Notes: a model not told the origin generated them from the letters alone. Shown: positions 10,141 to 54,945, counted from the stretch's first letter. The stretch: DNA of 64,000 nucleotides from Candidatus Tayloriibacteriota bacterium (GCA_943350765.1 CALRAJ010000001.1:191066-255065); one strand, 5' to 3'. Numbers and translations: made by a program.

Positions 10141-10300
10141 ACCCAAACAAGCCGTAAAGGCTCGAGGAGTGGAGACGACGAAGATACAGGAGCCACATAT
10201 CGGTGGCGGGAGTACTGAGCTCAGTAGAGCGAATGTGACGGGCTAGCAAGACGCGTTACAAGCACGGTACACCGTTGAGCCTTTCCGCCAAACCACGCCC
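10141..10300. repeat. Dispersed intergenic repeat, family 1 copy A
   Basis: GAAGATACAGGAGCCACATATCGGTGGCGGGAGTACTGAGCTCAGTAGAGCGAATGTGACGG...GTTACAAGCACGG..GTTGAGCC. Near-identical copies lie at 54815-54945 (same orientation) and 27236-27350 (inverted). Related units lie at 20560-20720 and 51285-51425. Confidence 0.7.
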
Positions 10301-10310
10301 CTACTCAGGC

Positions 10311-10616
10311 TTACTTCCCTCTTTTTTCGTAGTATACATATGTACCAAAATCACCAATCTGCTTGATCAGCTTTTCCTGCTCCAGCTCCTCTAGATACCT
10401 CGTCGCAGTCGCATCTGACACCCCGCAGAGCTTTTGCACATCATCATTTTTCACCCGCCCATCCGCCACCAAATCAAAATACTCCAAAATCTTCCTCTTC
10501 TGCTCCGCTTTCTCCCCCGCCTGCCTCGCTATCAAACTTCCCACTCCATATTTCATCCTCCATATCAAAAGACCCACCACCAGCAGCACCAAGACTAAAA
10601 TTAAAATTGTGTTCAT
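10311..10616 (-). CDS. Small membrane-anchored helix-turn-helix protein
   Basis: N-terminal TM helix (ILILVLVLLVVGLLIW) and a C-terminal winged-HTH-like segment (VQKLCGVSDATATRYLEELEQEKLIKQIG). Confidence 0.45.
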   Translation of the reverse strand: MNTILILVLVLLVVGLLIWRMKYGVGSLIARQAGEKAEQKRKILEYFDLVADGRVKNDDVQKLCGVSDATATRYLEELEQEKLIKQIGDFGTYVYYEKRGK

Positions 10617-10649
10617 AGGGTTAGTATAACATTTTTATGGTTGTTCTAG

Positions 10650-10844
10650 CTACAAATCAAATACCTCCTCAATAGAACCCCTAATCGAATCGCGTATATC
10701 CTTTGCCAGCATTTCATCATATTCAACCATAGATAAGACTGACTGAACCTGCTCAACTAATAAACTTTTTACTCCAATATCTTTAGCCACCTCCCTAACC
10801 TCGTCTTCGGTTATTGTGAATCTTATAGATTTTATTTTTTCCAT
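10650..10844 (-). CDS. Small hypothetical protein (64 aa)
   Basis: Compact acidic ORF between the HTH protein and the DpnI-like gene. No motif recognised. Confidence 0.3.
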   Translation of the reverse strand: MEKIKSIRFTITEDEVREVAKDIGVKSLLVEQVQSVLSMVEYDEMLAKDIRDSIRGSIEEVFDL

Positions 10845-10878
10845 ACCTGATCTTTGATCGAATCAGAAAGAAAGTCAA

Positions 10879-11643
10879 TTAGGATAGTTGATAAGTCCCA
10901 TTTCCGGTAAAAGTAAGGTAGTTCCTATCACGAAGAAACTGTAGTTGCTGGCGAATTTTATCTTTAATATGCTTGTTTTCTGGATGAATCTTCTGAAGCT
11001 CAGATTCAAATTCATACACATCAGCCAGAATAAATTCTTTTTTATTTATCGCATCAATACAATTCATAATATCCAAAATCCAACCCTTTGCATCGGCTTT
11101 TGTAACTTTCTTGAGAAATACAGTCTTTTGCCACTTATCTAATACTTCTTTTTTGTCTATCTCCCTACCGTCTTCCACATAAAAGATTTGCCCCGCTTTA
11201 GGAATTTTTGAAAAGAGAATGTTTGAACCCACCCAGCCCGCCCTTCGGGCAGTTTTTTTTAAAGGATTTCTTTTCTCGATAATTTCAGAAATGAAAAAGT
11301 GCTTCGGCACCACAAAGAAATCATTCACAGACAAAGATTCCGAGTATCCCATGAAAAAAAAGTTCGGTTTAGTCTTAGAGTTTATTCTTTCAATCATTTT
11401 AGAATACGCTCCGGCAGGCACAGTCTTTCCAATCTTTCCTTTCTTCGACTTTAGCTCAAAATCTTCACTGCACTTTTTGCAATAAAAATCTGCAACTGGT
11501 TTATTATTCGTATAGTTATAAATCTGGTCTCCACAACCTGGGCAAAAAATAAAACTCTCTACCCATACCTCAGTCATCACACGAATCTTTTGTGATTGGC
11601 TTGTATAGTTATTTGCAAGTTGTGTGTCGAATGATGATTCCAT
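10879..11643 (-). CDS. DpnI / Dam-replacing-protein (DRP) family methyl-directed type IIM restriction endonuclease-like protein
   Basis: N-terminal ...YTSQSQKIRVMTEVWVESFIFCPGCGDQIYNYTNNKPVADFYCKKCSEDFELKSKKGK... resembles the DpnI/DRP N-terminal region (SQK-R-TE-WV, CPxCG, ADFYC-xC-E-FELKSKKG). The C-terminal region is compatible with a winged-helix domain. Recognition is from memory of the family. Confidence 0.55.
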   Translation of the reverse strand: MESSFDTQLANNYTSQSQKIRVMTEVWVESFIFCPGCGDQIYNYTNNKPVADFYCKKCSEDFELKSKKGKIGKTVPAGAYSKMIERINSKTKPNFFFMGYSESLSVNDFFVVPKHFFISEIIEKRNPLKKTARRAGWVGSNILFSKIPKAGQIFYVEDGREIDKKEVLDKWQKTVFLKKVTKADAKGWILDIMNCIDAINKKEFILADVYEFESELQKIHPENKHIKDKIRQQLQFLRDRNYLTFTGNGTYQLS

Positions 11644-11674
11644 TTTTTTATTTTATTTGGGTAAAAACTTTGAT

Positions 11675-12808
11675 TTATTCATTCGTAAAAAGCTCCAAGT
11701 ACTTTTTGTACTCAAAATCACGACCGTAGGTAGTAAGTCGGTCACGCTGTACAAGAATGCCGATACGCACAAGCTCGCTCACCAATGTATTTGCAGCAGG
11801 ACGAGAAAGTCCTGTCCACTCTTCCACCTTTCGCACATTCACAATAGGAAGTTTATATAACCCCCGAAGCACAGTGAGACCATTTTTTGCTCGACTACTG
11901 CCAAGAGCCATGACTTTGGCCATATCTTTTTCTCTGAGAGCAGTAATGGCACGAGATGTTACCACCGCTTGATCAGCGACAGTTGCAACTCCTTCCAAAA
12001 AGAAATTAATCCATGGAATAATTTCGCCTTTATTATGGTACCCTTCGAGCAAATCGAAGTATGCCTCACGATTCCTTCTAAAGAAAGCGGAAAGATATAG
12101 AACCGGTCGTTCCAAAATCCCTTGTTGACAGAGATAGAAGGTAACGAGCAACCGTCCGACTCGCCCATTACCATCAAGAAAGGGGTGAATAGTTTCAAAT
12201 TGAGCATGCATAAGAGCTGTTTTAATTAATGGTGGTATATCAATATCAGCATGCAAAAACTTTTCAAAATCGTCGAGGGTACGATTCATTTCATGTACTG
12301 GCGGAGGAACAAACCGAGCTGTCGCAGGAGAACCTCCACCAATCCAATTTTGGGTACGGCGAAATTCACCAGGAGTCTTCCCTAGTGCATCACCAGTACC
12401 CTCTAATAATGTTTTGTGCACTTCCTGAATAAGTCTAAGTGAAAGTGGTAATGATTCCAGTCGACGCAGACCTTGGTTCATTGCATCTATATAATGTAAA
12501 ATTCGGTCGACATCTTTCGGTAAATCTTTTGTGATTTCAATCTCCGCACGAATAGCATCACTCATAGTTGCTTGTGTACCCTCAATCTCACTCGAAAGTG
12601 CCGCTTCTTTGCGGGCATACATAAATATAAACAAATCTAGATCGGGAAGTAGCTGAGTAATTCCATCAAGCTTACCCACAGATAAAGCTGCTCGAGCATG
12701 AAGCATATGAGTAAGTTTCAAGAAAATAGGCATTTCCACAAATGGAAACGGTCCGGGGATAAAAGCTTTGTAGCCTTGGGGTTGTTGTATAAATTGACCT
12801 ATTTTCAT
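11675..12808 (-). CDS. Fic/Doc (Fido) family protein with a C-terminal winged HTH
   Basis: Canonical Fic motif HPFLDGNGRVGR. The N-terminal inhibitory motif SSEIEG ([ST]xxxE[GN]) is typical of class II Fic. The C-terminal region is wHTH-like. Confidence 0.8.
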   Translation of the reverse strand: MKIGQFIQQPQGYKAFIPGPFPFVEMPIFLKLTHMLHARAALSVGKLDGITQLLPDLDLFIFMYARKEAALSSEIEGTQATMSDAIRAEIEITKDLPKDVDRILHYIDAMNQGLRRLESLPLSLRLIQEVHKTLLEGTGDALGKTPGEFRRTQNWIGGGSPATARFVPPPVHEMNRTLDDFEKFLHADIDIPPLIKTALMHAQFETIHPFLDGNGRVGRLLVTFYLCQQGILERPVLYLSAFFRRNREAYFDLLEGYHNKGEIIPWINFFLEGVATVADQAVVTSRAITALREKDMAKVMALGSSRAKNGLTVLRGLYKLPIVNVRKVEEWTGLSRPAANTLVSELVRIGILVQRDRLTTYGRDFEYKKYLELFTNE

Positions 12809-12878
12809 ATCTTTACATCATCTATGTAGATGTAAAGATATTAGCATAATACTTAACATCACACAAGGAGATGTAAAG
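12809..12878. promoter_or_regulatory. Palindromic operator-like site at the Fic start (TCTTTACATC..GATGTAAAGA plus a third GATGTAAAG half-site)
   Basis: A 10-bp inverted repeat lies immediately upstream of the Fic ATG (12808). An extra direct half-site lies about 35 nt further upstream. Confidence 0.4.
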
Positions 12879-13061
12879 CCTAACTTGTGGATAAGACATG
12901 GTTTGCCAGCAGTGCATGTATATACCCTTTATTTAAGCCATATTTTGGTCTAAAGGCTCAACGGTACCCGTTGAGCCTTTGAAGCTATAAACGCTCTAAA
13001 AATAGCGAAATTGCTTTGCCAGACATTATGCTATAATAATCGCACCTATAAAAATACAAAT

Positions 13062-14057: not shown

Positions 14058-14087
14058 ATCTAGTGTGCTTACAAAAATCGTTGAAGG

Positions 14088-14212
14088 TGTATGTTTCTAA
14101 GGGGGTTCGCAAGCGCGACGGCGGGAGATTTCAGGAAAAAATTAGCAAATTTTTATCCGTACCCCGTCTACAGGTGCCTATCCCTAAACCATAGGCCTTA
14201 GAAACATATACC
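14088..14212. repeat. MITE-like modular repeat, family 2 copy (inverted relative to 6461-6610)
   Basis: Terminal inverted repeats ATGTTTCTAAGG / CCTTAGAAACAT enclose GGGGGTTCGCAAGCGCGACGGCGGGAGATTTCAGGAAAAAATTAGCAAATTTTTATCCGTA. This segment is nearly identical to the reverse complement of 6511-6570. Confidence 0.6.
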
Positions 14213-14244
14213 GAGAAAGATTTTTGTATCCCCATATAAAAACC

Positions 14245-15765: not shown

Positions 15766-15770
15766 AACAG

Positions 15771-16784
15771 ATGAATACTGACAAAAAACATCCTTCCCAG
15801 ATTTTAACACTACTTCTCGTGGTTATGGTGGCGAGTGTATTTTTTTACACTGAAAGAAATCACATAGACAAAGAATCGTCTCTAGCAAGCTCACTCAGCT
15901 CACAACAAGAGATGCTCGAAAAGTATCATGTTGAAATCAACAAATTAAAACTTGAAGCGGAGAAACAAACAAAAAAGATAGCAGAGGTTGAAAACACCTC
16001 CTCAGAAAATAACCAGGTAATAAATAAAACTATCAAAAAGGCTGAGTTAGAAAATAAAATTATTGAAAATAAAGCAACTCAAAAAATATCTGCCCTAGAG
16101 GCAAAACTGGCAAACAGTCCAAAAGATTTAATCCGTATTATAGGAGAGTGGAAGCCACGGGTTGCAAAAATATCCTGTATCTGGAAGGACACTTCTGGTA
16201 AAACATACGCTACTGGTGGTGGCTCTGGATTTATTTTTAAAGAAAATACAGAATCCGTCGAACACACATGGGTTTTGACAAATAAACATGTATTTCTTGA
16301 TAATAATAAATACACACCCTACACCTGTACCATCAAACTGCCTGAGCTAGAGAGTGGACTGGAAATAGATTTTAAATCAGGTAATTATCATATAATTGAA
16401 CCACTTGATATCGGCCTCATAGAAGTAATCAATCCTGATACATACATAAAATCATTGACTACCGTAAAAAAGACATTTACTGAAGTATTTTGCCAGTACA
16501 AAGCCTCACTCGGTGAGAAAATCGCAATACTCGGCTACCCTACTATCGGTACAATTGGCGACATCACAGCTACTGAAGGGATCATTTCGGGTTATGATGG
16601 TGACTTCTATATTACCTCTGCAAAGATTGAGCGTGGTAACTCTGGTGGCATAGCCCTATCAATAGAAAAAAACTGTATCCTCGGTATTCCAACCTTTGCT
16701 AAAAAAGGCGAGATTGAAACCTTAGGTAGAATACTTACAACTCAAGCTATTTTTAAGGCTTGGAATGTACAACTGGGTCAATAA
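15771..16784 (+). CDS. Membrane-anchored trypsin-like serine protease (S1 family, no PDZ domain evident)
   Basis: N-terminal TM helix and a coiled-coil segment. The catalytic triad context is TNKHVF (His), an Asp region and GNSGG (Ser). Confidence 0.6.
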   Translation: MNTDKKHPSQILTLLLVVMVASVFFYTERNHIDKESSLASSLSSQQEMLEKYHVEINKLKLEAEKQTKKIAEVENTSSENNQVINKTIKKAELENKIIENKATQKISALEAKLANSPKDLIRIIGEWKPRVAKISCIWKDTSGKTYATGGGSGFIFKENTESVEHTWVLTNKHVFLDNNKYTPYTCTIKLPELESGLEIDFKSGNYHIIEPLDIGLIEVINPDTYIKSLTTVKKTFTEVFCQYKASLGEKIAILGYPTIGTIGDITATEGIISGYDGDFYITSAKIERGNSGGIALSIEKNCILGIPTFAKKGEIETLGRILTTQAIFKAWNVQLGQ

Positions 16785-16837
16785 TTTCTGTAATACTGTA
16801 TAAAAATGGTGTAGATAATATGGCAGTTTCTGAACAT

Positions 16838-20390: not shown

Positions 20391-20559
20391 CTTTTTTCAC
20401 ACTTTAGATCACTTTTAACAGTCAAATCTCTAAAATATGGCTCTAGATATAGCTATTCTCCAGACCTCCAAAATAGGTATGGTCGACAAAAATTGTATAA
20501 AATACCATCTATAAGGTTGCTTCGCTCTATTGGCCGATACCGAGGAAGATACCTCGGTA

Positions 20560-20720
20560 CGCAAGAGCCATACTGGTGGCGAAAGTCCTGAGCCTAGCAG
20601 GGCGTAGGGTAGGAGACACGACGGTGGCGGGCATGCTGAGCTCAGTAGAGCGTAGTACTCGATTTATATAGTCGCTCCGCTCCTTATAAATCGGTGCTTG
20701 CCCTACGCTTTGGTAAGCTC
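20560..20720. repeat. Dispersed intergenic repeat, family 1, composite copy D (tandem and inverted units)
   Basis: AGAGCCATACTGGTGGCGAAAGTCCTGAGCCTAGCAGGGCGTAGGGTA ... GGTGGCGGGCATGCTGAGCTCAGTAGAGCGTAGTACTCG ... TGCCCTACGCTTTGGTAAGCTCAGGACTTTCGGTGCC. Confidence 0.6.
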
Positions 20721-20781
20721 AGGACTTTCGGTGCCTTCGCACCTCTTGCATAAAAAACCTCATCAGCGTAGCATTATATAT

Positions 20782-21468
20782 ATGAAAAAAGTTGCGATTT
20801 TTGATGTAGACGGCACGATTTTCCGTTCGAGCTTGCTCATAAAGCTAGTTGAGGCTTTTGTTGTTGAAAAGGTTTTTCCGAGTACTGCTAAAGATGGCTA
20901 TGCCTTAGAACATAAACTCTGGCTCGAAAGAAAAGGAACTTATGATGAATACATCGAGGCGGTCATCGAGGTTTTTATGGAACATATCCGTGGAGTGTCA
21001 TACACAGACTTTGATAAAATAAGTAAAAATATAGTAGACAAGCACAAGGACGAAACCTATGTGTACACTCGCATGCTAGTCAGAAAACTTAAAAAACAGG
21101 GCTACTTTTTACTAGCAATTTCACAATCACCAAAAGGTATACTGGATGCTTTTTGTAAAAACCTGGGATTTGATAAAGTGTACGGGAGATTTTACGAAAC
21201 AGATGCCGATGATCATTTTACTGGCAAAGTAGCTGAGCTACATTTAATAGCCAACAAGGCAAATATCGTCAAAAGAGTTGTGGAAAAAGAAAACCTGACA
21301 CTCAAAGGTTCGGTATGTATCGGTGATACTGAGGGAGACATCCCCATGCTCGAGCTGGTAGACAATCCAATCTGCTTTAATCCAAACAAAAAGCTTTATC
21401 GTATTGCCAAACTCAATAAATGGAAAGTGGTAGTCGAAAGAAAAGATGTTGTGTATGAGATAATGTAG
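20782..21468 (+). CDS. HAD-superfamily hydrolase (phosphoserine-phosphatase-like, subfamily IB)
   Basis: HAD motif I (VAIFDVDGTI) and the C-terminal GDTEGDIPMLE (motif IV). The start was set at MKKVAIFD. Confidence 0.65.
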   Translation: MKKVAIFDVDGTIFRSSLLIKLVEAFVVEKVFPSTAKDGYALEHKLWLERKGTYDEYIEAVIEVFMEHIRGVSYTDFDKISKNIVDKHKDETYVYTRMLVRKLKKQGYFLLAISQSPKGILDAFCKNLGFDKVYGRFYETDADDHFTGKVAELHLIANKANIVKRVVEKENLTLKGSVCIGDTEGDIPMLELVDNPICFNPNKKLYRIAKLNKWKVVVERKDVVYEIM

Positions 21469-27214: not shown

Positions 27215-27235
27215 CAGTCAATACTCAGCAAAATC

Positions 27236-27350
27236 AACGGCTCAACAGGCCTGTGCTTGTAACGAGTTTTACTAAACCGGCACATTCGCTCTACTGAGCT
27301 CAGTACTCCCGCCACAAGTCATGGCTCCTGTATCTTCGTCACCTTCGCTC
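27236..27350. repeat. Dispersed intergenic repeat, family 1 copy B (inverted orientation)
   Basis: The reverse complement reads GACGAAGATACAGGAGCCATGACTTGTGGCGGGAGTACTGAGCTCAGTAGAGCGAATGTGCCGG..GTTACAAGCACAGGCCTGTTGAGCCGTTG. Confidence 0.65.
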
Positions 27351-27984
27351 CTTGAGCCGTTCAAATGGCTATACAGAGCCGTTTTATGAAGATTGGTAAG
27401 GACGAGTTTAAGGTGTGATTTGCCTCAATGGCTCAACCACACTGGTTGAGCCATTGAGGCAAAATACGGCATTATTTGAGGCTCACTTTCCATCCTCTAT
27501 ATATGTGGATAATAGAATTGACAGTAAAACTAAAAGTAGTACAGTAAACATTGGCATCTCCCCTAAATCCGATCACTTCAGTGAATAGGGTGAGGAGGTG
27601 GAGTTTGGAACAAACATTGGAGGTATTATGGAAGTAAAGCCCCTTAGTCTCATTGAACAAGTGTTGATTGAGGATCCCAAAAACATTGGTATCCTGTTCT
27701 ATTTTGAGAATTTGCTCGAAGAGAGTATCAGACTCACGGGTGGTTCCTGAAAAAACTTTTAACTCGCAAGCTATTTGGTAACTCGAATGGCTTTTTTTTA
27801 TATATAATTTTGCATGGTGTATTTGAACTAAAGTTTGCACATAAAGCCAAACAAGAGTAATATATACTACATTCAAAGATTGTTATGGCTACCAACCATA
27901 AATCCGCCAAAAGTGGATGACAAAATCCTAATTTGAAACAAATAATACCCTCTCCAATTAACGCTTGGACACTTATCTCATCAA

Positions 27985-28232
27985 AAGTTTCGTGCTAGAG
28001 GACAAGTTGGAACGCGAGACATATCGAGATACGGCGAGCGTGAGACGAAGTCCTGTAGCCGAAAAATTTTCGGTGAGATGTGCAATGGTTAATTGGAGAT
28101 GGTATAAGTCCGCCCTATATTTTATACTTATAAAAAAGGTGGAAAGCTCGGTGGAACCGCGAGGACTACTCCCCGCCCGAGCATACAGACGCTGTGCGTC
28201 TGTATGCTCGGGCGTTTTGCATTATTATTTAT
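27985..28232 (+). promoter_or_regulatory. T-box riboswitch leader controlling thrS
   Basis: Conserved T-box sequence AAGCTCGGTGGAACCGCGAGG at 28143-28165. It is followed immediately by a terminator hairpin CCCGAGCATACAGACGC-TGTG-CGTCTGTATGCTCGGG plus CGTTTTGC, about 20 nt before the thrS ATG. Confidence 0.65.
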
Positions 28233-28241: not shown

Positions 28242-29492
28242 ATGAACCCAACACCAACACCTGCTCCAGAAGAACGCGACCACAAAAAAATCGGTAAAGA
28301 ACTAGACCTATTTACCTTTTCAACCTCTGTCGGCAAAGGCCTCCCACTCTGGACCGAAAAAGGCTCGGTGATTCGTCGTGAGCTCGAACGATTCATAGTA
28401 GACGAAGAAACCAAGCGTGACTACAAGCATGTCTACACTCCAGAGATTGCCAAGCTCGACCTCTACCGCAAGTCCGGACACTATCCACACTACAAGGATT
28501 CGATGTACGCACCGATTAAAATTGATGACGAAGAATTTATGCTTCGTCCGATGACATGTCCGCACCATTTCGAGCTCTACCTCAGAAAACCTCACAGCTA
28601 CAAAGAACTCCCTATCCGTATCGCGGAGCTCGCTCGCCTTTATCGCTATGAGCAATCTGGTGAACTTATGGGTCTTCAGCGTGTCCGTTCATTCTGTCTT
28701 TCTGATGCCCATATTATTTGTAAAGATGATGAACAAGCGGTCGAGGAAATCGGTAAAGCACTCGATCTCATCGAATTTGTCACGGAAACGATGGGTCTTG
28801 CAAAAGGTGCCGACTACTGGTTCCGCTTATCTCTGGGAGATATTACTAATAGTGAAAAATACCACAAAGACGATGCGTCATGGATAAAGAGTGAAGGTCT
28901 TTTGCGAGATCTTCTAATAAAACGAGGTGGTACCTTTACTGAAGCCAAAAATGAAGCCGCTTTCTATGGTCCAAAAATTGATGTGCAAATGAAAAATGCC
29001 AACGGTAAAGAAGATACCGCCTTCACCGTACAGTATGACTTCTGTATGCCTGGTAGATTCAACCTCGTCTACACCAACGAAGCCGGCAAAGAAGAGATCG
29101 CCCGTGTTGTCCACCGTTCGTCTGTCGGTGCTATTGAACGCATCATTGCATTCCTTATTGAAAAATATATAGGTGCCTTTCCTCTCTGGCTCGCTCCAGT
29201 ACATGTCCAGATTATCGCGATCGATGAACAACATCATATAGAAGCACAGAAAGTTTACTCAGCACTCAGGGCAGAAAATATTCGCTGTGAGCTCTCACTT
29301 GGTAAAGAAGGTTTTGGTAAAAAAGTCCGTTCAGCCAAGCTAGAAAAGATTCCCTATTTTATTATCATCGGAGACAAGGATATTGCCGTACAAAAAGTCA
29401 CCCTTGAAAGTCGAGATGGGGGTAATCTTGGTCAGATGAGTACAGATGAAGTACTTGCGAAACTATTGAAAGAAATAAAGGAGAAGAAGTAA
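28242..29492 (+). CDS. thrS: Threonyl-tRNA synthetase, short form (catalytic and anticodon-binding domains only; the N-terminal TGS and editing domains are absent)
   Basis: It begins at RDHKKIGKELDLF, a motif that lies near residue 240 in canonical ThrRS. The class II motifs and the anticodon-binding domain follow. No upstream ORF encodes the TGS/N2 domains. Confidence 0.8.
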   Translation: MNPTPTPAPEERDHKKIGKELDLFTFSTSVGKGLPLWTEKGSVIRRELERFIVDEETKRDYKHVYTPEIAKLDLYRKSGHYPHYKDSMYAPIKIDDEEFMLRPMTCPHHFELYLRKPHSYKELPIRIAELARLYRYEQSGELMGLQRVRSFCLSDAHIICKDDEQAVEEIGKALDLIEFVTETMGLAKGADYWFRLSLGDITNSEKYHKDDASWIKSEGLLRDLLIKRGGTFTEAKNEAAFYGPKIDVQMKNANGKEDTAFTVQYDFCMPGRFNLVYTNEAGKEEIARVVHRSSVGAIERIIAFLIEKYIGAFPLWLAPVHVQIIAIDEQHHIEAQKVYSALRAENIRCELSLGKEGFGKKVRSAKLEKIPYFIIIGDKDIAVQKVTLESRDGGNLGQMSTDEVLAKLLKEIKEKK

Positions 29493-38448: not shown

Positions 38449-38736
38449 CTAATTCCCCATTCGTTTTAACTTTCTATAGACATCATCGTCATTTCTTTTT
38501 CCTATCAAAGTCATATACAAAAACTCTTTAGACCAGCGGTAAACGATTCGGTACTCACCGATATCAGCGCGGTAATATTCTTTGTATCCGCGCAAAATAC
38601 TTGCATCCGATGCTTTCGGATTTTCAGCGAGTTTAAAAATCTTTTCGGCTATTTGCCGACACTGCTTCGGTGGCAATTTTTTAAGAAACTTCTCAGAGAC
38701 TCTTGAGAGATTAATCTCGAGCATGGAGAGCTTCAT
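38449..38736 (-). CDS. RelE/ParE-family type II toxin
   Basis: 95 aa. ...YRADIGEYRIVYRWSKEFLYMTLIGKRNDDDVY is a RelE/ParE-like C-terminal pattern. It overlaps the upstream antitoxin gene by 26 nt. Confidence 0.65.
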   Translation of the reverse strand: MKLSMLEINLSRVSEKFLKKLPPKQCRQIAEKIFKLAENPKASDASILRGYKEYYRADIGEYRIVYRWSKEFLYMTLIGKRNDDDVYRKLKRMGN

Positions 38737-38989
38737 TTAAAAGCTTGCGACTTTTAGCCACTCCAATATAGCCCTTTTTATGTGCGCGAGTAGAGAGCTC
38801 GCCCCAATACGCGTCTCGACGAGCCTCAAATTCATTGTACTCATCCATAGACATAACTACCGCCACCTGTCGGCCATTTTTCAGGACGGCCACAGGAGAT
38901 AGTCGTGCCTCTTCTAAAAGCCGTCCGAAATTATTCTTCGCTTCTTTTGCAGTAAAGATTGATGTGATCATGGTAGCTATTATAGCCAA
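38711..38989 (-). CDS. Phd/YefM-family antitoxin
   Basis: 92 aa. TAKEAKNNFGRLLEEARLSPVAVLKNGRQVAVVMSMDEYNEF is the classic Phd/YefM N-terminus. Confidence 0.7.
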   Translation of the reverse strand: MAIIATMITSIFTAKEAKNNFGRLLEEARLSPVAVLKNGRQVAVVMSMDEYNEFEARRDAYWGELSTRAHKKGYIGVAKSRKLLNEALHARD

Positions 38990-40553: not shown

Positions 40554-41846
40554 TTAAGGTTTCTTATCGAGAAGCCATTTCCAGAGTGGTTTGAATTGTA
40601 TAGTCTTCCCGTCTTTTTTCACTTCTCGTTCCTCGTCCCATGTGAGTATGGTAAGCGTGTCTACATTTAATTCACCGCTTGCTTCAAATAGGGCTCTTGT
40701 TTCTCTCTGCTCGACATCTGAATTTATTGACTCATAGCAAACTTGTATCAGTTCGGTTACCACATGTCCTTGCTTGAGTACAAAATCGACTTCGCGTTCA
40801 TTACGAGTCTTATAATAGAACAATTCTCTATTTGGTTTAGCTCCACGCTTGACCAATTCAGTAAAGACCAAGTTTTCCATTAGTTTGCCTTTATCAGGAG
40901 AGTGTTGTACTGCTTTGGCAATTATAAAACCGTTATCAACAGCATAAACCTTTCGGGGAGATTTTATACGTTCCATTGATTTTGGAGAGTATCGTAGTAG
41001 AGAAAAGACTAGATACGCTTCCTCAAGATAATTTATATATTTCTCTATGGTTGTAGTGCTCTTTAAATTCAAAGCCTCCATCAGTTTTCTAACTGTATAT
41101 AAACTAGAAAAATTGTTTATCAGATGATTGGCTAGATTGCTTACCTGAGTTGAGAATTTAACTCTATGTCTTTTGACCACATCCTTGAAAAGTACTGCAT
41201 CAAGAAGAACATCAAGATAGTCTTTGGGGTCGACATTGCTTACCGCCACCTCGGGAAATCCACCGTTGAGCAGATAGTTCTCCGTAAGATTCAGAAGCTC
41301 GCCTCGTTGTCGTGGCAAAGAAGAGTATTCCTGATTTATTTGAAATTTTTTTGATCGAAGAAATTCATTGAAATCAAACGGTAGTATTTCTATGGGCATA
41401 TGTCTGCCAGTAAGGTGTGTAGCAAGTTCTTTCGAAAGCAATTGTGCGTTGGACCCAGTGAGTACCAAATTGTATCCGCCTCGGTGCAGACGATTTGCAA
41501 ATAACTCCCAACTTGGCAAGTTTTGAATCTCGTCAAATAAAATGGTTTTTACATCACTGCCATAAGTGGCGTGCAGTTCTTTCATTAGTTCATCCGTAGA
41601 TATGCCCCCCACACTCGACAATACTTCATCATCGAAATTGAAGTACATAAACGGACGGTCTTTCAAAAGTACGAGCGAAAATATTGATTTTCCAGCTCGT
41701 CTGGGACCGAGAACTACTTTTATCAAACTAGAATCCAGCCATTTTTTAGCAAATGGTTCTTTGGTTCGATCTATATAAGCAAGAGCTAAAAGCTCCTCTT
41801 TTTGTAGTTTTTGACCAGAAACTATATCTTTTAGGTTATTTTGCAT
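40554..41846 (-). CDS. AAA-family ATPase with a C-terminal DUF4143-like region
   Basis: Walker A (GPRRAGKS) and Walker B (ILFDEIQ). Length is about 430 aa, and the architecture is typical of the AAA_14/DUF4143 proteins. Confidence 0.6.
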   Translation of the reverse strand: MQNNLKDIVSGQKLQKEELLALAYIDRTKEPFAKKWLDSSLIKVVLGPRRAGKSIFSLVLLKDRPFMYFNFDDEVLSSVGGISTDELMKELHATYGSDVKTILFDEIQNLPSWELFANRLHRGGYNLVLTGSNAQLLSKELATHLTGRHMPIEILPFDFNEFLRSKKFQINQEYSSLPRQRGELLNLTENYLLNGGFPEVAVSNVDPKDYLDVLLDAVLFKDVVKRHRVKFSTQVSNLANHLINNFSSLYTVRKLMEALNLKSTTTIEKYINYLEEAYLVFSLLRYSPKSMERIKSPRKVYAVDNGFIIAKAVQHSPDKGKLMENLVFTELVKRGAKPNRELFYYKTRNEREVDFVLKQGHVVTELIQVCYESINSDVEQRETRALFEASGELNVDTLTILTWDEEREVKKDGKTIQFKPLWKWLLDKKP

Positions 41847-41883
41847 AGTATTTTACTTACACTGGGCAAAATAGGTTGTTTTT

Positions 41884-41908
41884 GACCAGTACAGATAGTA
41901 TACTGGTC
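41884..41908. promoter_or_regulatory. Palindrome GACCAGTA-CAGATAGTA-TACTGGTC in the divergent promoter region
   Basis: An 8-bp perfect inverted repeat centred between the divergently transcribed AAA ATPase and PrimPol-helicase genes. Confidence 0.35.
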
Positions 41909-41962
41909 AGGATTGGGGACGTCAACAAACAATGTGGGTAATCGAAAAATACCCTAAATTTT

Positions 41963-44116
41963 ATGATTTCTATCACCGAACAACATCTTGAGTTATTTAT
42001 ATCGCTGTTCCGAGGAAGAACGGATGTGTATGCGCGTCGGTGGGAAAAAGAAGGTCGGTCTGGATACAGCCCAGCATATGAATTTAATTGGGATGAGTTC
42101 ATGACACATAAGCGACGTGGTGGCTCGATGAAAGATTTTGAAAATAAGAGACTGATACCGCTGACTCGAGATGTTATTAGAAAACATCTTATTGGTCAGC
42201 ATGTGATTGGCATATATCCTATCCTGCCCGAAAACACATCGTACTTTATTGCGGCTGATTTTGATGGTGAAAATTGGTTGAACGATAGTAAGAATTTTCT
42301 TGTAGTTTGTGTAGAAGCAGGATTATCGGCATATCTTGAACAATCGCGCTCTGGAAATGGCGGTCATGTTTGGATTTTCTTTTCCGAAGCATATCCATGC
42401 TATAAAAGTCGGCAAGTTGCACTTGAACTTATTCGTAAGGCCTTTGATGTTTCTGAATTTGAAAAAGATGTTAGCTTTGATCGTTTATTCCCAAATCAAG
42501 ACACCTTGAGCAAAGCTGGTTTTGGTAATCTTATTGCTCTCCCCCTTCAAGGAAAATCGGTGGAAAATAGCAATGCTGTTTTTATTGATCCAGAGACAGC
42601 AAAACCATTTCCTGATCAATGGCAGTTTCTTGCTGATATCAAAAGACACACTGTTACTGAATTGGATTCAATACACCAAGAAATCTTTGCAGACACTGGA
42701 AAGCCAGTGTTAAAAACACGATCTGATAATGTATTAGAAATTTTTGTAAGTAATCAAATCAATTTAAGAAGAGCAGAACTTACTCCTACACTCATTCATT
42801 TTCTCAAAGCGGAACTCAATTTTCTTAATACTGAATATCTAACTAAACTAAGGTTGGGAAAATCAGTCTATGGTGTAGAAAAATACTTTAAATTGATTGA
42901 TGAAGAAGGTGACATCGTTTCCTTGCCTCGTGGGTTTTTACAAAAACTTGTCAACTTTCTCAAAGAAAATAATATCGCCTATAAAATACGATTTAATATC
43001 CCCTCTTTTGAGGAAACTCATTATAAAAGTCAAATAGAATTAAAGCCATCACAAATACCAATTATAGAGACAGCTACACAATCTGATCAAGGTGTAATTG
43101 TTGCTCCATCCGGCAGTGGCAAAACTATTATCGGCTTGGAACTCATGGCTCGTAAGCAATTACCAGCTCTTATTCTTGTCCATCGTAAGCAGTTACTAGA
43201 TCAATGGATTGAAAGAATACAGTCGTTTTTAGGAATTACAAAACTACATATTGGCCAATATTCGGGAACAAAGAAAAAGTTAGGCAAGCAGATAACCATC
43301 GGTTTATTGCAGAGCCTAGCTCGTAAAGGTGACGTGTCAGAATTTAGAGATAAATTTGGCACAATTATCGTAGACGAATGCCATCATATTCCAGCAGCTA
43401 CTTTTCGAAAAGTCATCGCACAACTCAATCCAAAATATATTTATGGCCTTACTGCTACACCAAAACGAAAACATAACGATGAAAAATTGATCTACGCCTA
43501 TATAGGCGAGATTATTGCTCACATGGAAGCTTTAGATACTACTCCGATTTCCAATCTCCCCTATCAATCACCAGAAATTTTAATCCGCACAACAAATTTG
43601 GCTGTACCCTTTAAGTTTTCTACTGACCATTTTCAACTCTTAGCTAAAGTCGTTTGTTTTGATACCACCAGAAATCAGATGATCATTGAGGATATTTTAA
43701 GTAAAGTTACTGATAACAAAAAATTGCTTGTGTTGAGCGAGCGTAAAGAGCATTTGGAAATTTTGGCTATGTACCTCAAAGGCAAATGCGAGACAATCGT
43801 TATTTCAGGAGATGATTCTGCTCCTAAAAGAAAATCGAAACTCAAACAGATTGAGTCCGGACATTATCAAGTCATTTTTTCCACGGGCCAGTTTTTTGGC
43901 GAAGGTCTGGATATTAGAAGTATTTCTTGTCTCATCTTGGCGTTTCCGTTTTCGTTTGAAGGTAAACTTGTTCAATATATGGGGCGTCTCCGAGATATCG
44001 GGGTTCAGAAAATAATCATTGACTATCGAGATACACAGATTCCATTTTTGGAGAAACAGTTCAAACAACGCGAACGATATTATAAAAAGCTTAAAGCTCA
44101 GATAAAATTTGCTTAA
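41963..44116 (+). CDS. Primase-polymerase (PrimPol/AEP) N-terminal domain fused to an SF2 DExH-box helicase
   Basis: N-terminal domain has IGIYPI...YFIAADFDGE (DxD) and SRSGNGGHVWIFF (sGxGxH), the hallmarks of bifunctional Prim-Pol. C-terminal domain has Walker A VIVAPSGSGKT, DECH box IIVDECHH, motif III LTATP and helicase-C motifs (FSTGQFFGEGLDI, QYMGRLRD). Confidence 0.65.
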   Translation: MISITEQHLELFISLFRGRTDVYARRWEKEGRSGYSPAYEFNWDEFMTHKRRGGSMKDFENKRLIPLTRDVIRKHLIGQHVIGIYPILPENTSYFIAADFDGENWLNDSKNFLVVCVEAGLSAYLEQSRSGNGGHVWIFFSEAYPCYKSRQVALELIRKAFDVSEFEKDVSFDRLFPNQDTLSKAGFGNLIALPLQGKSVENSNAVFIDPETAKPFPDQWQFLADIKRHTVTELDSIHQEIFADTGKPVLKTRSDNVLEIFVSNQINLRRAELTPTLIHFLKAELNFLNTEYLTKLRLGKSVYGVEKYFKLIDEEGDIVSLPRGFLQKLVNFLKENNIAYKIRFNIPSFEETHYKSQIELKPSQIPIIETATQSDQGVIVAPSGSGKTIIGLELMARKQLPALILVHRKQLLDQWIERIQSFLGITKLHIGQYSGTKKKLGKQITIGLLQSLARKGDVSEFRDKFGTIIVDECHHIPAATFRKVIAQLNPKYIYGLTATPKRKHNDEKLIYAYIGEIIAHMEALDTTPISNLPYQSPEILIRTTNLAVPFKFSTDHFQLLAKVVCFDTTRNQMIIEDILSKVTDNKKLLVLSERKEHLEILAMYLKGKCETIVISGDDSAPKRKSKLKQIESGHYQVIFSTGQFFGEGLDIRSISCLILAFPFSFEGKLVQYMGRLRDIGVQKIIIDYRDTQIPFLEKQFKQRERYYKKLKAQIKFA

Positions 44117-44240: not shown

Positions 44241-44425
44241 AATAAAGTTTAGTCTCGTCCTATCCCCGTAGCAAGCTATACCCTCGGACTACCTCGGCGG
44301 GGTATTAGGCGAGACATCTGGGTAAACTTTGTTGTATAGGTGTCGGCTCCGCCGACTTCATCCTCATTCTTGCGGATTCATCCCCGCGGCAAGCCGTCGG
44401 GGTATTCTCCACAATTACAATAAAC
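44241..44425 (+). ncRNA. Conserved structured element of about 185 nt, copy 1 (unknown class)
   Basis: About 93% identical to 55016-55199 in the same orientation. Internal complementary segments include AAAGTTTAG/TAAACTTTG, GTCTCGTCC/GGCGAGAC, CCCCG/CGGGG and GTCGG/CCGAC. No ORF. Confidence 0.4.
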
Positions 44426-47890: not shown

Positions 47891-48154
47891 AAATAATTAT
47901 TACTTAAATAAATCCAGGCATGGCCTGTATGTTACTATATGTATATCATTATAGTATACCTAAGTCAAGGAAGTGTCGAGGGCTTCTCAGTGAACCCAAA
48001 AAGGCCTATCGGTTAGGGATAGGCATCTGTAGACGAAGCCCTCGTATTTCTTTGGTAATAAATCTCTCAAGTCTCCTTCGCCACGCTGTAGCGTACTCGC
48101 GGAAGCGGGACTGCCCGTCTCCGAAGTCTCTTTTTTTGGTTCACTGCTACGCAA

Positions 48155-51260: not shown

Positions 51261-51284
51261 AAGGACTAATAGTATACTAAATGG

Positions 51285-51425
51285 GAGCGGGAGCCAAGAG
51301 CCATACTGGTGGCGAAAGTCCTGAGCTTAGCAAAGCGTAGGGCAAGAGCCATACAGGAGCCATACTGGTGGCGGGAGTACTAAAGCTCACCAGAGCGTAG
51401 TACTGGTAGCGAAGATGCTGAGTTT
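51285..51425. repeat. Dispersed intergenic repeat, family 1, tandem-unit copy E
   Basis: Repeated units AGAGCCATACTGGTGGCG[AG][AG]AGT.CTGAGCT.AGCA.AGCGTAG, between two and three units. Confidence 0.6.
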
Positions 51426-51494
51426 AGCAAAATAAAGTACAAGCGAGTGAGAAAAAGTTAATAGATTATAGTTTTTAGTTTATAGACGTATAGA

Positions 51495-51523: not shown

Positions 51524-51545
51524 TCATTCCAGTTGCACAATAGCT

Positions 51546-51872
51546 ATGAAAACATATACCTCGTCCCGTCGGAATACGCTCCTTGGGTTGCTCTGTGCAG
51601 CCCTCGGATCCATCAAAAGTCTTGGGGCAAAATCCCCCGAACCGAAATACTACCGAGTGCAGTGGAAGAAACTCCACGACGAGCCCGTCGGACCTGGGGA
51701 TATGTGGGTCTGCCACGAAACGGACCCCAACACCCCAAAACGGCAAAGTGAGAACTGCTACAACCTGCAGATGCAGGCCATTCACGGAAGTCATTGGGGC
51801 ACACCGGCTAAGAGTATCAGTCGGGGCAATGGTGACTATTGGAGACCGACTGGACTCGTTCCTGTTTTTTGA
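51546..51872 (+). CDS. Small Tat-signal secreted protein, paralog A (unknown function)
   Basis: Twin-arginine motif SRRNTLLGLL and a conserved core PKYYRVQWKKLHDEPVGPGDMWV.H.TDPNTP shared with 52212-52538. GC-richer than the genome background. Its own promoter and terminator are present. Confidence 0.55.
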   Translation: MKTYTSSRRNTLLGLLCAALGSIKSLGAKSPEPKYYRVQWKKLHDEPVGPGDMWVCHETDPNTPKRQSENCYNLQMQAIHGSHWGTPAKSISRGNGDYWRPTGLVPVF

Positions 51873-51887
51873 TCAATCAACTATCGC

Positions 51888-51915
51888 ACACTGTCTTTGA
51901 GACAGTTTTTTATTT
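51888..51915 (+). terminator. Rho-independent terminator
   Basis: ACTGTCT-TTG-AGACAGT followed by TTTTTTATTT. Confidence 0.55.
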
Positions 51916-52211
51916 AAAAAAATACGAAAAACCATAGTTTTCCGAATGCCAGAAAAGCCAATAAATGGGCCATTTGAAGGGCTCAACAGCCCTGTTGAGC
52001 CGTTCAAATGGCTGGTTACAACCTAGCGAGAACGGTTCTGACCGGGTGAAAGCCCATCTGGTTTCATTGAAATGACTAATTACTAGACTAGTTTACAATG
52101 TGGACATTTGAGCTTGTCTCACATTTGCAATATAATTTGACAATACATAAAGAAATAATGTATGCTACCCTATAGCCTGAACAAACATTGGTAACAAAAG
52201 ATTAATCTATT

Positions 52212-52538
52212 ATGAAGCAAGATGCTGTCATTACTGGTCAGTCCCGTCGGAATACGCTCCTTGGGTTGCTCTATGCCGTCCTTGGACTGAAGTTGGAAGT
52301 TGAAGCAAAAACTCCCGTGCCCAAATATCAAAGGGTGCAGTGGAAGAAACTCCACGACGAGCCCGTCGGACATGGAGATATGTGGGTTATGCACGCAACG
52401 GATCCAAACACTCCGGATAACCTACACTTCCTTGAAATGCACAGGGCTGGTAAACATTTCCACGGAATTCCAGCAAAGGATATACTCTATCCCAATGGTA
52501 ATTTTTGGAGGCCAGTTGCCATCGTTGATGTCAACTGA
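52212..52538 (+). CDS. Small Tat-signal secreted protein, paralog B
   Basis: SRRNTLLGLL twin-arginine motif. About 50% identical to 51546-51872 over the full length (KYQRVQWKKLHDEPVGHGDMWVMHATDPNTP). Confidence 0.55.
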   Translation: MKQDAVITGQSRRNTLLGLLYAVLGLKLEVEAKTPVPKYQRVQWKKLHDEPVGHGDMWVMHATDPNTPDNLHFLEMHRAGKHFHGIPAKDILYPNGNFWRPVAIVDVN

Positions 52539-52552
52539 TAAAAGATACCCTC

Positions 52553-52580
52553 AGCACTGCCCCAAAAGCAGTTTTTTATT
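52553..52580 (+). terminator. Rho-independent terminator
   Basis: GCACTGC-CCCAAAA-GCAGT followed by TTTTTTATTT. Confidence 0.5.
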
Positions 52581-52584
52581 TAAA

Positions 52585-53016
52585 TCATTTGCTATCAACA
52601 AATCCGATCTTTTTGACAAAAGCTGGAATAAACTTCTGATGACCTATAAATATTTCTTTTGGTAAATTGTCTAAATCAAACCATTTCCATTCTGCAAATT
52701 TATCTGGCTCTGTTACCTTTAGTTCACCTGACCAATTTTTTGCAAGAAAATTGATATGCACATAATGCACTTTCTCCAATGGATCATTTACTAGATGTAA
52801 AAATTCTAATTCATTTGATATTATACCAGTCTCCTCCTCCAATTCTCTTTTAGCTGCACCTGCTAGTGATTCTCCATATTCAAAATGACCTCCTGGTAAA
52901 CACCATGTTCCATAGCCAGTTTTTCCTATTCTTTTACCAAATAAAATCTTTCCGTCTTTAAAAACAAATATATTTACACCGATCTTTGGATATGATTTTT
53001 GATCGTTTGAGTTCAT
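52585..53016 (-). CDS. NUDIX hydrolase
   Basis: Nudix box GGHFEYGESLAGAAKRELEEETGI. Confidence 0.8.
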   Translation of the reverse strand: MNSNDQKSYPKIGVNIFVFKDGKILFGKRIGKTGYGTWCLPGGHFEYGESLAGAAKRELEEETGIISNELEFLHLVNDPLEKVHYVHINFLAKNWSGELKVTEPDKFAEWKWFDLDNLPKEIFIGHQKFIPAFVKKIGFVDSK

Positions 53017-53227
53017 TGTGATTAGATAATATATTAAATCAATTTACCCAGGCTCGTGCCTAAACCGCAGTAGCGGATTGGTATCTACGCTTCGCTTCGA
53101 CCCTTGGCTGGCTCACTCTGGGTCATTGAATTTAAAATATAATTTCTAAAGAAATTATATTTTAAATTCAATCTGCCCTGCATCTCTCTTTACAGGCCCG
53201 ATGCTGGATCTCGGATTTAAAATCCTA

Positions 53228-54325
53228 CTAGATTTTAAACTCTACGACATCCCCATCTTTTACCACATACTCCTTTCCCTCTGTCCGTACCAAACCCTTT
53301 TCTCGAGCCACTCCGTATGAGCCTGAGGCGAGAAGCTTGTCCCACTCGATAACTTCCGCACGCACAAACTTATCTTTAAAATCCGTGTGGATCGCCGTAC
53401 CAGCCAGAGGTGCTGTCCAACCTTTTCGTATTGTCCAAGCTCGAGTCTCCTCGACTCCAGTCGTAAAATAGGTAATCAGGTCGAGCACTTCATATCCAGC
53501 GCGAATAAGTGTATCGATACCATCGTCCTTTGCCCCTAACCCATCTCGCATTTCTTTTTTATCCGCATCAGATAGGTCCTTGAGCTCATGTTCAAAACCC
53601 GCGTCCACCACCACCCATTTTGCGCCAGTCTTTTTAAAATGTTCGATCAGTCGGGTATACCTTGCATCATTTATCTCATCAAGATTTTTGCCTCCAGCTT
53701 TTTTGTTTAAAACATACAAAAATGGCTTTGCGGTCAGCAAGTGCAAATGTTTGAGTAATGGTTTTTCAAATTCATCTGTAGTAACGGTACTGACGAGCTT
53801 CTCTGCCTCAAGAGCATTTTTTAATTTCTCTAGCAGTCCATTTTCAATCACTGCCTCTTTTTTGCCACGCTTTATATCACTTTGAATGTTTGAAAGACGC
53901 TTGGTCACTGTTTGAAGGTCGGCGAGGATAAGCTCGAGATTGATAACCTCGATATCATTGAGTGGGTCTATTTTACCATCGACATGGATTACATTATCGT
54001 CTTCAAAAATACGCACGACCTCAGCAATAGCATCCGTCTCACGGATATTAGTGAGGAATTGATTACCCAAACCCTCACCTGCCGAGGCACCTTTTACGAG
54101 CCCTGCAATATCCACAAACTCCACCGCCGCAGGCACCGTTTTTAATGTTTTAGAAAATGCAGACAACTTCCAAAGACGCTCATCTGGTACGGCTACTACA
54201 CCTACAGAAGGGTCAATTGTACAAAAAGGGTAGTTTTCAGCAGGCACACTCTTTTTAGTAAGTGCGTTAAAAAGCGTTGATTTACCGACATTTGGAAGTC
54301 CGACAATACCGATGGATAGTGACAT
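53228..54325 (-). CDS. ychF: Ribosome-binding ATPase YchF (Obg-family GTPase)
   Basis: [23 protein letters not shown], then the TGS/YchF C-terminal domain (…DFIRAEVI…). Length 365 aa. Confidence 0.85.
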
Positions 54326-54814
54326 AGGAACACACTATAACACAATTTTAATTAGGAATGAAATAATAAATACAAAAGGCGTCCGTGTGTGGACACGAAC
54401 GCCTGAGTGAGAACAGCCAAAATGGCCGTGAACGAAACGAATTTGCAACGAAATACTCAAAGCCCAGGGGCCTTTACCCTGTCCTGGCTTCCACAAACCA
54501 GGGGCTTGAGCCATTTCGCTGCTCCCAAAAAACAGGATGGAGTGATGCTCATAATACCAGCACTTTCAACCTGCTCGATCCGCAACTGATAATACATGCC
54601 CACAAGGAGCTCGTAGAAGAATCTCATAGCTTTCTTTCTGCGACCGACATACTTTATATCATACTGCATCACAAAATACAAGTATCTAAAAAAGAACTTG
54701 ATATTTTCAGTCCAAAGGCTAAACAATGTATGTTTGAGCCTTTGGGTCGTTTTTACCCCGAAATCTCATTACTGCCTATTCTGTAGGGTGCCTCTACAAA
54801 GCCATTTGAACGGC

Positions 54815-54945
54815 TCAAGGAGCGTAGGCGACGAAGATACAGGAGCCATATCGGTGGCGGGAGTAATGAGCTCAGCAGAGCGAATGTGACGGTCTAGTAG
54901 GATTCGTTACAAGCACAGGGCTGTTGAGCCGTTAGATTTTACCTA
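54815..54945. repeat. Dispersed intergenic repeat, family 1 copy C
   Basis: GACGAAGATACAGGAGCCATATCGGTGGCGGGAGTAATGAGCTCAGCAGAGCGAATGTGACGG..GTTACAAGCACAGGGCTGTTGAGCCGTTAG. Near-identical to copy A. Confidence 0.65.

Follow-up and report, generated by a model that had tools for sequence, protein, structure and literature searches.

A dispersed mosaic family of two-hairpin intergenic repeats in a Patescibacteria bacterium

Introduction

What kind of element recurs, in changing combinations, between the genes of a bacterium whose relatives are commonly said to have little mobile and repeated DNA? The question is raised by a 64,000-nt stretch of a Candidatus Tayloriibacteriota bacterium (GCA_943350765.1 CALRAJ010000001.1:191066-255065, referred to in its full length as the window), in which related sequences are found at five intergenic loci, named here 10k, 20k, 27k, 51k and 54k after their positions. 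Genomes of Patescibacteria (Candidate Phyla Radiation, CPR) are about 1 Mb in size and densely packed. An original prediction made from the sequence had described the repeats as a dispersed REP-like family built around a highly conserved 16-bp palindrome with an embedded GAGCTC, and had suggested that this palindrome binds a protein. The analysis described below upholds the kind of element, a dispersed mosaic intergenic repeat, and replaces its centrepiece: the conserved, repeating unit is a module of about 50 nt (module B) with two hairpins, and not the palindrome.

The window is a chromosomal stretch with genes for enolase, LeuRS, YchF, GyrB, RpoD, DnaG and RpoC, and is part of a Patescibacteria metagenome-assembled genome (GCA_964952345.1, contig CBBRBK010000001.1). 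Its closest named relatives are Patescibacteria/Paceibacteria-type lineages, and the host is thus a CPR bacterium, as had been assumed. In total, ~80 kb of the source genome was surveyed (the window and a further 15.6 kb), and the labels L001-L054 denote the related or metagenome loci with which the window was compared. No REP-, BIME- or BOX-like family of Patescibacteria was found in the literature searched, in agreement with the earlier remark that such families are not well described for CPR genomes. What appears to be new is therefore this family in Patescibacteria; REP, BIME and BOX elements are a known kind, to which the resemblance is architectural only.

Results

Five intergenic loci share one repeat

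The common repeat was evident on direct reading of the five regions and from a repeat finder (families D3-D5 and D20, with inverted pairs I1, I4, I5, I11, I15, I24 and I25 touching the family). A degenerate core, GTGGCGRRNNNNNTGAGCYYAGYARRGCG, matched six times in the window against 0.00 expected, far more than chance would give, and a covariance model run with filters off returned eight confident units and one weak or degenerate unit, all of them within the five loci. Neither nhmmer (--max) nor the covariance model gave anything above noise elsewhere in the 64-kb window, and the additional 15.6 kb held no further copies. The five predicted places were therefore borne out by reading, repeat finder, nhmmer and covariance model alike. 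Three of them (10k, 27k and 54k) hold long copies with a mutual identity of 84-90%, and the other two (20k and 51k) hold short units of ~48 nt.

All window copies lay between called genes or long open reading frames (ORFs), as did those of L001, L007 and L042, so that the description of the family as always intergenic was accurate; one assembly's gene caller had laid a 58-aa ORF over the 10k copy. Single, tandem and inverted units were all seen, as claimed, but an inverted pair occurred at one locus only (20k). Similarly, the tail GTTACAAGCAC..GTTGAGCC that was said to follow the units often is real but limited to the three long copies. The flanks were unrelated at every locus, and copies were also present in L001, L007, L027 and L042; a single duplicated segment was rejected on these grounds, and the family is a dispersed one.

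The conserved unit is a double hairpin and not the palindrome

The structure of the unit was examined in an alignment of 14 distinct units from the window and its relatives, the members of which are related by descent, and the pairing of P3 and of the palindrome was judged against 500 shuffles. Pairing in hairpin P1 (GCCAU-N4-GUGGC) held in 98% of cells, and one C-G pair was exchanged for G-C. Hairpin P3 (GCUC-AGYA-GAGC) was paired in 92.9% of cells, with 10 double (compensatory) changes distributed over three of its four pairs, and none of the 500 shuffles was as good; its variants comprised GCUC/GAGC, GCCU/GGGC, GCUU/AAGC, GUUU/AAAU and GUUU/AAAC. In both hairpins, compensatory changes preserve the pairing. 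The short-type units have an additional stem around P3, named P2 (AGUACU...AGUACU; variants AGUCCU/AGGGC and CGCU/AGUG), which was not present in the long-type units.

The perfect 16-bp palindrome, GTACTGAGCTCAGTAC, had no copy in the window. Two near-matches with one mismatch and two with three were found, all four with the central GAGCTC. When the pairing of the palindrome (CTGAGCTCAG) was assessed in the same way, 78.6% of cells were paired with one double change, and 150 of the 500 shuffles were as good, which is no better than the controls. Changes that broke the palindrome preserved the offset hairpin P3. The palindrome was thus neither highly conserved, its dyad symmetry lacking covariation, nor the sequence around which the family is built, as it occurs in a subset of units only and selection is visible on the offset P3 and on P1. 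Because its pairing is no better than that of shuffles while P3 covaries, the palindrome is a by-product of the P3 5' arm and its upstream neighbours in some units. Its proposed protein-binding role loses its main argument, since that argument was conservation.

The long copies lie within palindromic host hairpins

The long copies share the order hairpin arm, A, B, C, loop and second hairpin arm, for which RNAalifold predicted a multi-hairpin fold closed by AACGGCUCA/UGAGCCGUU. The A-B-C core of ~105 nt occupies one fixed loop position after GGCTC(A/G)A, and the arms belong to a second, more widespread repeat family of perfect palindromic hairpins, GGCT(C/A)AAC-loop-GTT(T/G)AGCC, with co-varying extensions (GGCTCAAC...GTTGAGCC). 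Eight such hairpins without a core (plain hairpins) were found in the window and others in L007, L011 and L014; GGCTCAAC/GTTGAGCC sites numbered 15 against ~2 expected, an over-representation of about 7-8-fold. On both sides, the sequence next to the 54k and 27k cores agrees at every position with the plain hairpin at 51969-52012 (GCCATTTGAACGGCTCAA / core / CAGG(G/C)CTGTTGAGCC), and the 10k core lies at the equivalent relative position of another hairpin subtype (AAAGGCTC.A / core / CGGTACACCGTTGAGCCTTTCCGCC).

The junctions of the filled hairpins show no duplication when compared with the plain ones. The core has neither terminal inverted repeats, the arms not being counted as such here, nor a target duplication, and its ends (GGAGCG... 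and ...ACAAGCAC) are not inverted repeats of each other. The left junction reads TCAA in two long copies and TCGA in two (10k and L001). One plain hairpin sits between divergent gene starts, and for this reason not all plain hairpins are terminators.

Module B occurs in at least three sequence contexts

At 20k, B units form part of a composite cassette with three further elements (L, X and Y), directly after which come promoter-like TTGCAT...CATTAT boxes and then the apparently leaderless ATG of a HAD gene (20782). At 51k, three B units stand alone as a bare tandem array, antisense to LeuRS, which begins ~23 nt from the LeuRS start codon (51260, - strand) and abuts the conserved TTGGCTC/TATACT promoter-like boxes of that gene. 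The L-X-Y cassette was also found without B, in 12 copies (L014, L015 (two), L007, L026, L027, L029, L030, L042, L047 and L052 (two)), and with B, as X-B-Y, in L007. The X and Y stems were 98% paired with eight double-change cells; most of Y was fixed by the search pattern, and within Y only the outer pairs are informative. In L042, an A-C core without B was seen inside a GGCTCAA hairpin.

The arrangements recorded were hence A-C (L042), A-B-C (10k, 27k, 54k and L001), X-Y (the 12 copies), X-B-Y (L007), X-B-B-Y-B' (20k, with B' the inverted unit) and B-B-B (51k), the number of tandem B units ranging from one to three. As B is found in the A-C loop core, in the X-Y cassette and as a bare array, it is an insertable or amplifiable module with at least three sequence contexts. 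The family shares with BOX- and BIME-like architectures its variable modules, a middle module present zero to n times and an extragenic location throughout.

The family is narrow and its copies turn over between relatives

The exact pattern of the B core gave one match in 185,579 species genomes, namely L001, a Patescibacteria metagenome-assembled genome, and no match in the JGI metagenomes; neither collection contains the source genome. Because the exact core is so rare in both scans, the family is narrow, and these searches indicate that it is confined to a small group of related Patescibacteria. Neither the B nor the Y pattern was found in a viral contig collection, and a phage origin was therefore rejected.

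L001 belongs to another species; its copy shares 91.7% identity with that at 10k but lies between lysS and mraZ. Close relatives (enolase 92% identical) were retrieved via neighbouring proteins. Downstream of enolase, L007 and L011 have a plain hairpin only; upstream of LeuRS, both flanks align in L014 and ~125-150 nt of array are absent; and upstream of YchF, L014 and L015 have no long element and an X-Y cassette instead. No B unit was detected by nhmmer in L011, L012 or L014-L016, and the B units of L007 occupied two other sites, upstream of a gene for a 622-aa protein and after RNase J. Since orthologous sites are empty and relatives hold copies at non-orthologous sites, copies are gained and lost on the timescale of species divergence. 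Contigs with an identical enolase were 99.995-100% identical to the window, and strain-level presence or absence was uninformative for that reason. Such turnover between close relatives shows that non-coding DNA at gene boundaries is still tolerated and reshuffled in these streamlined genomes. Repeats of this kind break assemblies and may lead gene callers astray, and they are usable as strain markers.

The Y module and promoter-like sequences

The B arrays and X-Y cassettes are located directly upstream of promoter-like boxes (HAD at 20k, L007, and LeuRS at 51k); in L007 these read TTGACA-17-TATAAT and are followed by an ATG 6-8 nt later. The pattern of the Y module (CGATTTATA-TAGTCGCTYYRCTCCT-TATAAATC) was found in 36 metagenome contigs (L017-L052). 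In 26 of the 36, Y ended 5-8 nt (mostly TCAGCC) before an ATG, with no Shine-Dalgarno sequence in between. The genes headed in this way, ribosomal-protein genes and other highly expressed ones, included those for L11, S18, L24, L20, L16, L14, L22, L31, S7, SSB, MetK, PurF and PilC, among others. A complementary arm (AATGAGCGAAGTGAATATAAT..., a loosely matched pattern) was present 87-169 nt upstream of Y in 16 of the 26, and the long hairpin that lies between this arm and Y has arms that differ completely among copies yet stay complementary. A mini-ORF, SD-ATG-x-TAT-GGC-ATT-TAA (SD, Shine-Dalgarno), was seen on the 3' arm of the hairpin in eight Y copies.

The TTTATA and TATAAA arms of Y are 16 nt apart, a spacing like that of -35 and -10 boxes. 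If they act as such boxes, transcription would start at the ATG and give a leaderless mRNA. This raises the tentative, and on balance unlikely, idea of clade-wide movable 'punctuation cassettes' in Paceibacteria-like Patescibacteria, in which a terminator and a leaderless promoter would have spread together between genes, even inside ribosomal-protein operons, with B inserting and expanding within them. If true, the link would bear on the punctuation of transcription units in a phylum with almost no experimental genetics.

As a separate observation, a -10 box 6-10 nt before the ATG with no Shine-Dalgarno sequence was noted for the HAD and LeuRS genes and for the methyltransferase and 622-aa genes of L007, which suggests that leaderless mRNAs may be frequent in the clade.

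Discussion

Comparison with known repeat families

The analogy with REP and BIME elements drawn by the original prediction holds for the architecture and fails for the conserved palindrome and the inverted doublets. In REP/REPIN-RAYT systems (RAYT, REP-associated tyrosine transposase), the conserved unit is a short (20-40 nt) imperfect palindrome, mostly in inverted doublets; here it is a two-hairpin module of ~50 nt, and four of the five loci hold single or direct tandem units. Like the BIMEs of Enterobacteria and Pseudomonas, the family is an extragenic mosaic of palindromic units and short motifs, with single, tandem and inverted units placed intergenically and near terminators, and with palindromes invaded by other elements. 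Unlike BIMEs, whose unit is a single GC-rich palindrome of 20-40 nt, it has a double hairpin as its unit, one inverted doublet, an apparently much lower copy number and no RAYT found in the ~80 kb; there is also no sequence similarity.

BOX elements of Streptococcus pneumoniae are intergenic, have the structure boxA-boxB(n)-boxC and possess no transposase of their own. The present family resembles them, in architecture only, in having three module types, a middle module of ~45-50 nt repeated from zero to several times in tandem, outer parts that can pair to close a stem-loop, an intergenic location and no transposase of its own. It differs in that B is also found in a second host (X-Y) and alone, and in that the A-B-C core lies inside a pre-existing family of palindromic hairpins. 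With ERIC/IRU elements, Correia-type elements and miniature inverted-repeat transposable elements it shares imperfect palindromes of ~130 nt, internal insertions at fixed positions, frequent transcription in untranslated regions (UTRs) and presence or absence at a given site between related strains; in contrast to these, its core has no terminal inverted repeats or target-site duplication. We know of no insertion sequence related to the family.

The arms GCTCAAC...GTTGAGC also fit the R''/R' consensus of integron attC sites (RYYYAAC...GTTRRRY), and the sizes overlap (57-141 nt). Unlike attC sites, however, they are perfect palindromes without extrahelical bases, scattered among housekeeping genes in both orientations without a cassette array, and no integrase was found in the window; an attC array or a cluster of attC sites lacking an integron integrase (CALIN) was rejected on this basis.

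The preferred explanation

The family is best explained as a BIME/BOX/ERIC-like mosaic of non-autonomous intergenic repeats, a reading to which we assign a probability of roughly 0.55. Spread would occur through tandem amplification and through either copy-insertion or recombination, for which hairpin loops and short homologies (GAGCCA, GAAGATAC) would be the sites. Copies would persist only in the terminator-promoter punctuation between genes, where additional hairpins would do no harm or might help slightly as insulator or 3'-UTR structures. The hairpins themselves may be maintained either because they are needed for propagation or because only well-folded inserts are tolerated, and no dedicated function would be needed to explain the family.

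Several points weigh against this explanation. A cognate RAYT, which the original prediction had proposed to look for, was not found, and nor was any other mobilising enzyme: a Pfam search of 40 window ORFs and the precomputed calls for the rest of the ~80 kb gave no Y1_Tnp or other transposase domain. A candidate mobiliser beside the 54k copy, a 298-aa ORF (55559-56455), was ParB-N-like with a DGRHR motif and not a transposase. No pair of otherwise identical strains, one filled and one with a clean empty site, documents an insertion, and the copy number is modest (five loci, or 8-9 units, per ~80 kb). Furthermore, the long copies (the three of the window and L001) are antisense to both flanking genes in four cases of four (p about 0.06), a bias not predicted for a purely neutral element. 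Both long subfamilies are old: the L001 copy resembles 10k more closely than 10k resembles 54k or 27k. This age and the compensatory changes could equally reflect selection for an RNA function.

Alternative explanations

The strongest alternative, possible though not probable, is that the repeats constitute a small structured RNA family or cis-acting RNA motif transcribed on the written strand. The long form of ~125 nt would then be a multi-hairpin RNA closed by a GGCUCAA/UUGAGCC stem, B a double hairpin that binds protein or RNA, and the arrays multivalent binders. Consistent with this, compensatory changes maintain the pairing of P1, of P3 and of the C hairpin, the long copies of different species share 92% identity at different loci, and the antisense position of the four long copies is that expected of independent transcription units. 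Read on the gene strand, each of the four lies at the 3' end of the upstream gene. The written strand also folds better (-46 to -49 kcal/mol, z -2.7 to -3.3) than its complement (-33 to -42 kcal/mol, z -1.3 to -2.9), and G-U pairs in P1 and P3 are confined to it (13 G-U cells against 0 A-C cells). Most of these G-U cells, however, trace to a single inherited U-G pair closing the P1 loop, and the data set is small, its 14 distinct units being related by descent. In consensus scans of the element strand, neither a regularly placed upstream promoter nor a regular U-run behind the elements emerged. Close relatives manage without orthologous copies, and B is found in three contexts of unrelated sequence, pointing either way with respect to the neighbouring genes.

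The DNA-level alternative contained in the original prediction, a REP/REPIN-like palindrome centred on GAGCTC and read by a RAYT or by a nucleoid, gyrase or IHF-type protein, now seems improbable. It is favoured by a central GC pair in 10 of the 14 distinct unit types and by the four window sites within three mismatches of the 16-mer, as well as by the over-represented, perfectly palindromic host hairpins. A motif, GAGCGAAG(C)GAC, which by reading recurs in A and at the 3' end of B and whose complement recurs in L and Y, could also be a binding site. Against it stand the absence of perfect copies from the window, the symmetry that shuffles match in 150 of 500 cases, the breaking changes that keep P3, the single locus with an inverted doublet and the failure to find a RAYT or Y1 transposase among the proteins of the ~80 kb.

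Likewise quite unlikely is a hairpin-targeting IS200/IS605- or IS110-type element, surviving as a remnant or miniature and moved in trans as single-stranded DNA. On this explanation the long core would be a palindrome-associated transposable element that entered the hairpin loop on the 3' side of TCAA, and the missing terminal inverted repeats and target duplication, the subterminal hairpins P1 and C, and the fixed insertion point in two hairpin subtypes would all be accounted for. The fold is strand-asymmetric, the GC skew of the window is monotonic, and four of the five loci share one strand. The folding strand is, however, the C-rich one, which makes it, if the usual skew rule holds, the leading-strand template and not the exposed lagging-strand template. 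The left junction is TCGA in 10k and L001, B alone (48-51 nt) is also insertable at junctions without a common target, and no TnpA, TnpB or DEDD transposase was seen in the ~80 kb.

The remaining candidates can be dismissed briefly: a hammerhead-like core (CUGANGA...GAA) did not fit on reading and Rfam was silent; a short interspersed element derived from tRNA has in its favour a P3 that resembles a D-arm (GCUC-AGUA-GAGC) and nothing else tRNA-like; the small ORFs of 10k and 54k are in different frames from those of 27k, with no frame conserved between copies, and a coding role was rejected for this reason; a T-box relation of the LeuRS-adjacent array fails on its strand and on the absence of the array from L014; and CsrA-type GGA motifs, present in long B (ACAGGAGCC), are missing from the short units (AAGAGCC). 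The repeats of the window and 20 related loci had no Rfam match at the gathering threshold, an E-value search of the 54k and 20k loci gave chance-level matches only, and ARAGORN detected neither tRNA nor tmRNA in the window.

Table 1. Positions of the repeat family, its host hairpins and other features (window coordinates unless another locus is named).
Feature	Position	Strand	Details
Long copy 1 (10k)	10156-10292	+	B 10188-10239; left arm AAAGGCTCGA, A (GGAGTGGAGACGACGAAGATA), B, C hairpin (..ACGGGCTAGCAAGACGCGTTACAAGCAC), loop, right arm CGGTACACCGTTGAGCCTTT; antisense to winged helix-turn-helix (wHTH) gene 10311-10616 (-) and DUF2339 gene 7986-9893 (-)
Long copy 2 (27k)	27232-27373	-	B 27279-27329; A-B-C inside AACGGCTCAA...TTGAGCCGTT hairpin; 18 nt past enolase stop codon (27214); antisense to enolase and downstream aminoacyl-tRNA synthetase (aaRS) gene
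Long copy 3 (54k)	54797-54938	+	B 54841-54890; A-B-C inside GCCATTTGAACGGCTCAA...CAGGGCTGTTGAGCCGTT; antisense to YchF 53228-54325 (-) and 96-aa ORF 55246-55536 (-)
20k composite cassette	20508-20747	+	L motif, X, B, B, Y, inverted B
20k L motif	20508-20530		TCTATAAGGTTGCTTCGCTCTAT
20k X hairpin	20538-20559
20k B units	20563-20612, 20613-20660, 20698-20747	+, +, -	Third unit inverted
20k Y hairpin	20660-20693		CGATTTATA-16 nt-TATAAATCG
51k bare tandem array	51283-51447	+	Three B units
51k B units	51296-51345, 51355-51405, 51411-51441	+	Third unit degenerate
Palindrome variant			CTGAGCCTAG
Plain hairpin	1041-1080		GGCGGAAAGGCTCAAC..GTTGAGCCTTT; subtype of long copy 1 arms
Plain hairpins	5439-5473, 12943-12982, 27419-27463, 54705-54746, 58932-58965, 58988-59029
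Plain hairpin	51969-52012		GCCATTTGAA(C/G)GGCTCAAC-AGCCCT-GTTGAGCC.TTCAAATGGC; paralogous 'empty' version of hairpin carrying long copies 2 and 3
Candidate leaderless-type sites	20746-20784; L007 15405-15450, 8806-8850
Third repeat family	6458-6600, 14070-14228, 48000-48075, 57960-58135, 59060-59188		Inverted pairs
RNase P RNA	58220-58804	+	585 nt
184-nt direct repeat, 44 kb copy	44241-44424		TOTE-type AEP-primase/helicase and AAA_14 ATPase genes, 40554-44116
184-nt direct repeat, 55 kb copy	55016-55199		ParB-like 298-aa ORF and 96-aa ORF, 55246-56455
Candidate non-coding RNA	~20355 down to 19930	-	~420 nt; promoter at 20389-20362
T-box-like leader	~28140-28230		Upstream of aaRS gene at 28242
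Defence/addiction genes	10879-12808, 38449-38989, 40554-44116

Other features of the window

Three candidate RNAs were noted outside the repeat family. An RNase P RNA of bacterial class A with two large insertions (~95 and ~115 nt) scored 93 bits against an Rfam gathering threshold of 100, and was missed by the default scan because its score falls just under that threshold; the L014 ortholog (357 nt) scored 121 bits. A candidate non-coding RNA with no long ORF is preceded by a near-consensus promoter (TTGACA-16-(TG)TATACT) and ends in a stem, ACCGC..GGCGGT, with a T-run. A 42-nt piece of it matches L007, and it had no Rfam match at E<=1. A T-box-like leader, with GGAAAGCTCGGTGGAACCGCGAGG and then a terminator (GCCCGAGC...GCTCGGGCGTTTT), has conserved counterparts in L007 and L011; at the gathering threshold, the Rfam scan did not report it.

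A third repeat family consists of inverted pairs around CCCTTTAAAAGATA(C/T)GCC and is also present in L026, L042, L046 and L052. Defence or addiction genes were found amid the housekeeping genes, comprising a DpnI-like endonuclease beside a Fic protein, a ParE/Phd toxin-antitoxin pair and a TOTE-type AEP-helicase with an AAA_14/DUF4143 ATPase.

The two copies of a 184-nt direct repeat are 93% identical, with very GC-rich stems, and fold strongly on both strands (-59 and -69 kcal/mol) without an Rfam match. Each copy borders genes that are missing from the relative L014, and the repeat may be the end of a mobile island or a novel RNA. The L054 contig, from one assembly of the same population, ends at locus position 16606 inside the ParB-like gene (~55.6 kb in the window). 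The 184-nt repeat is ~400 nt away and the 54k element ~680 nt away, and this break was possibly induced by the repeats.

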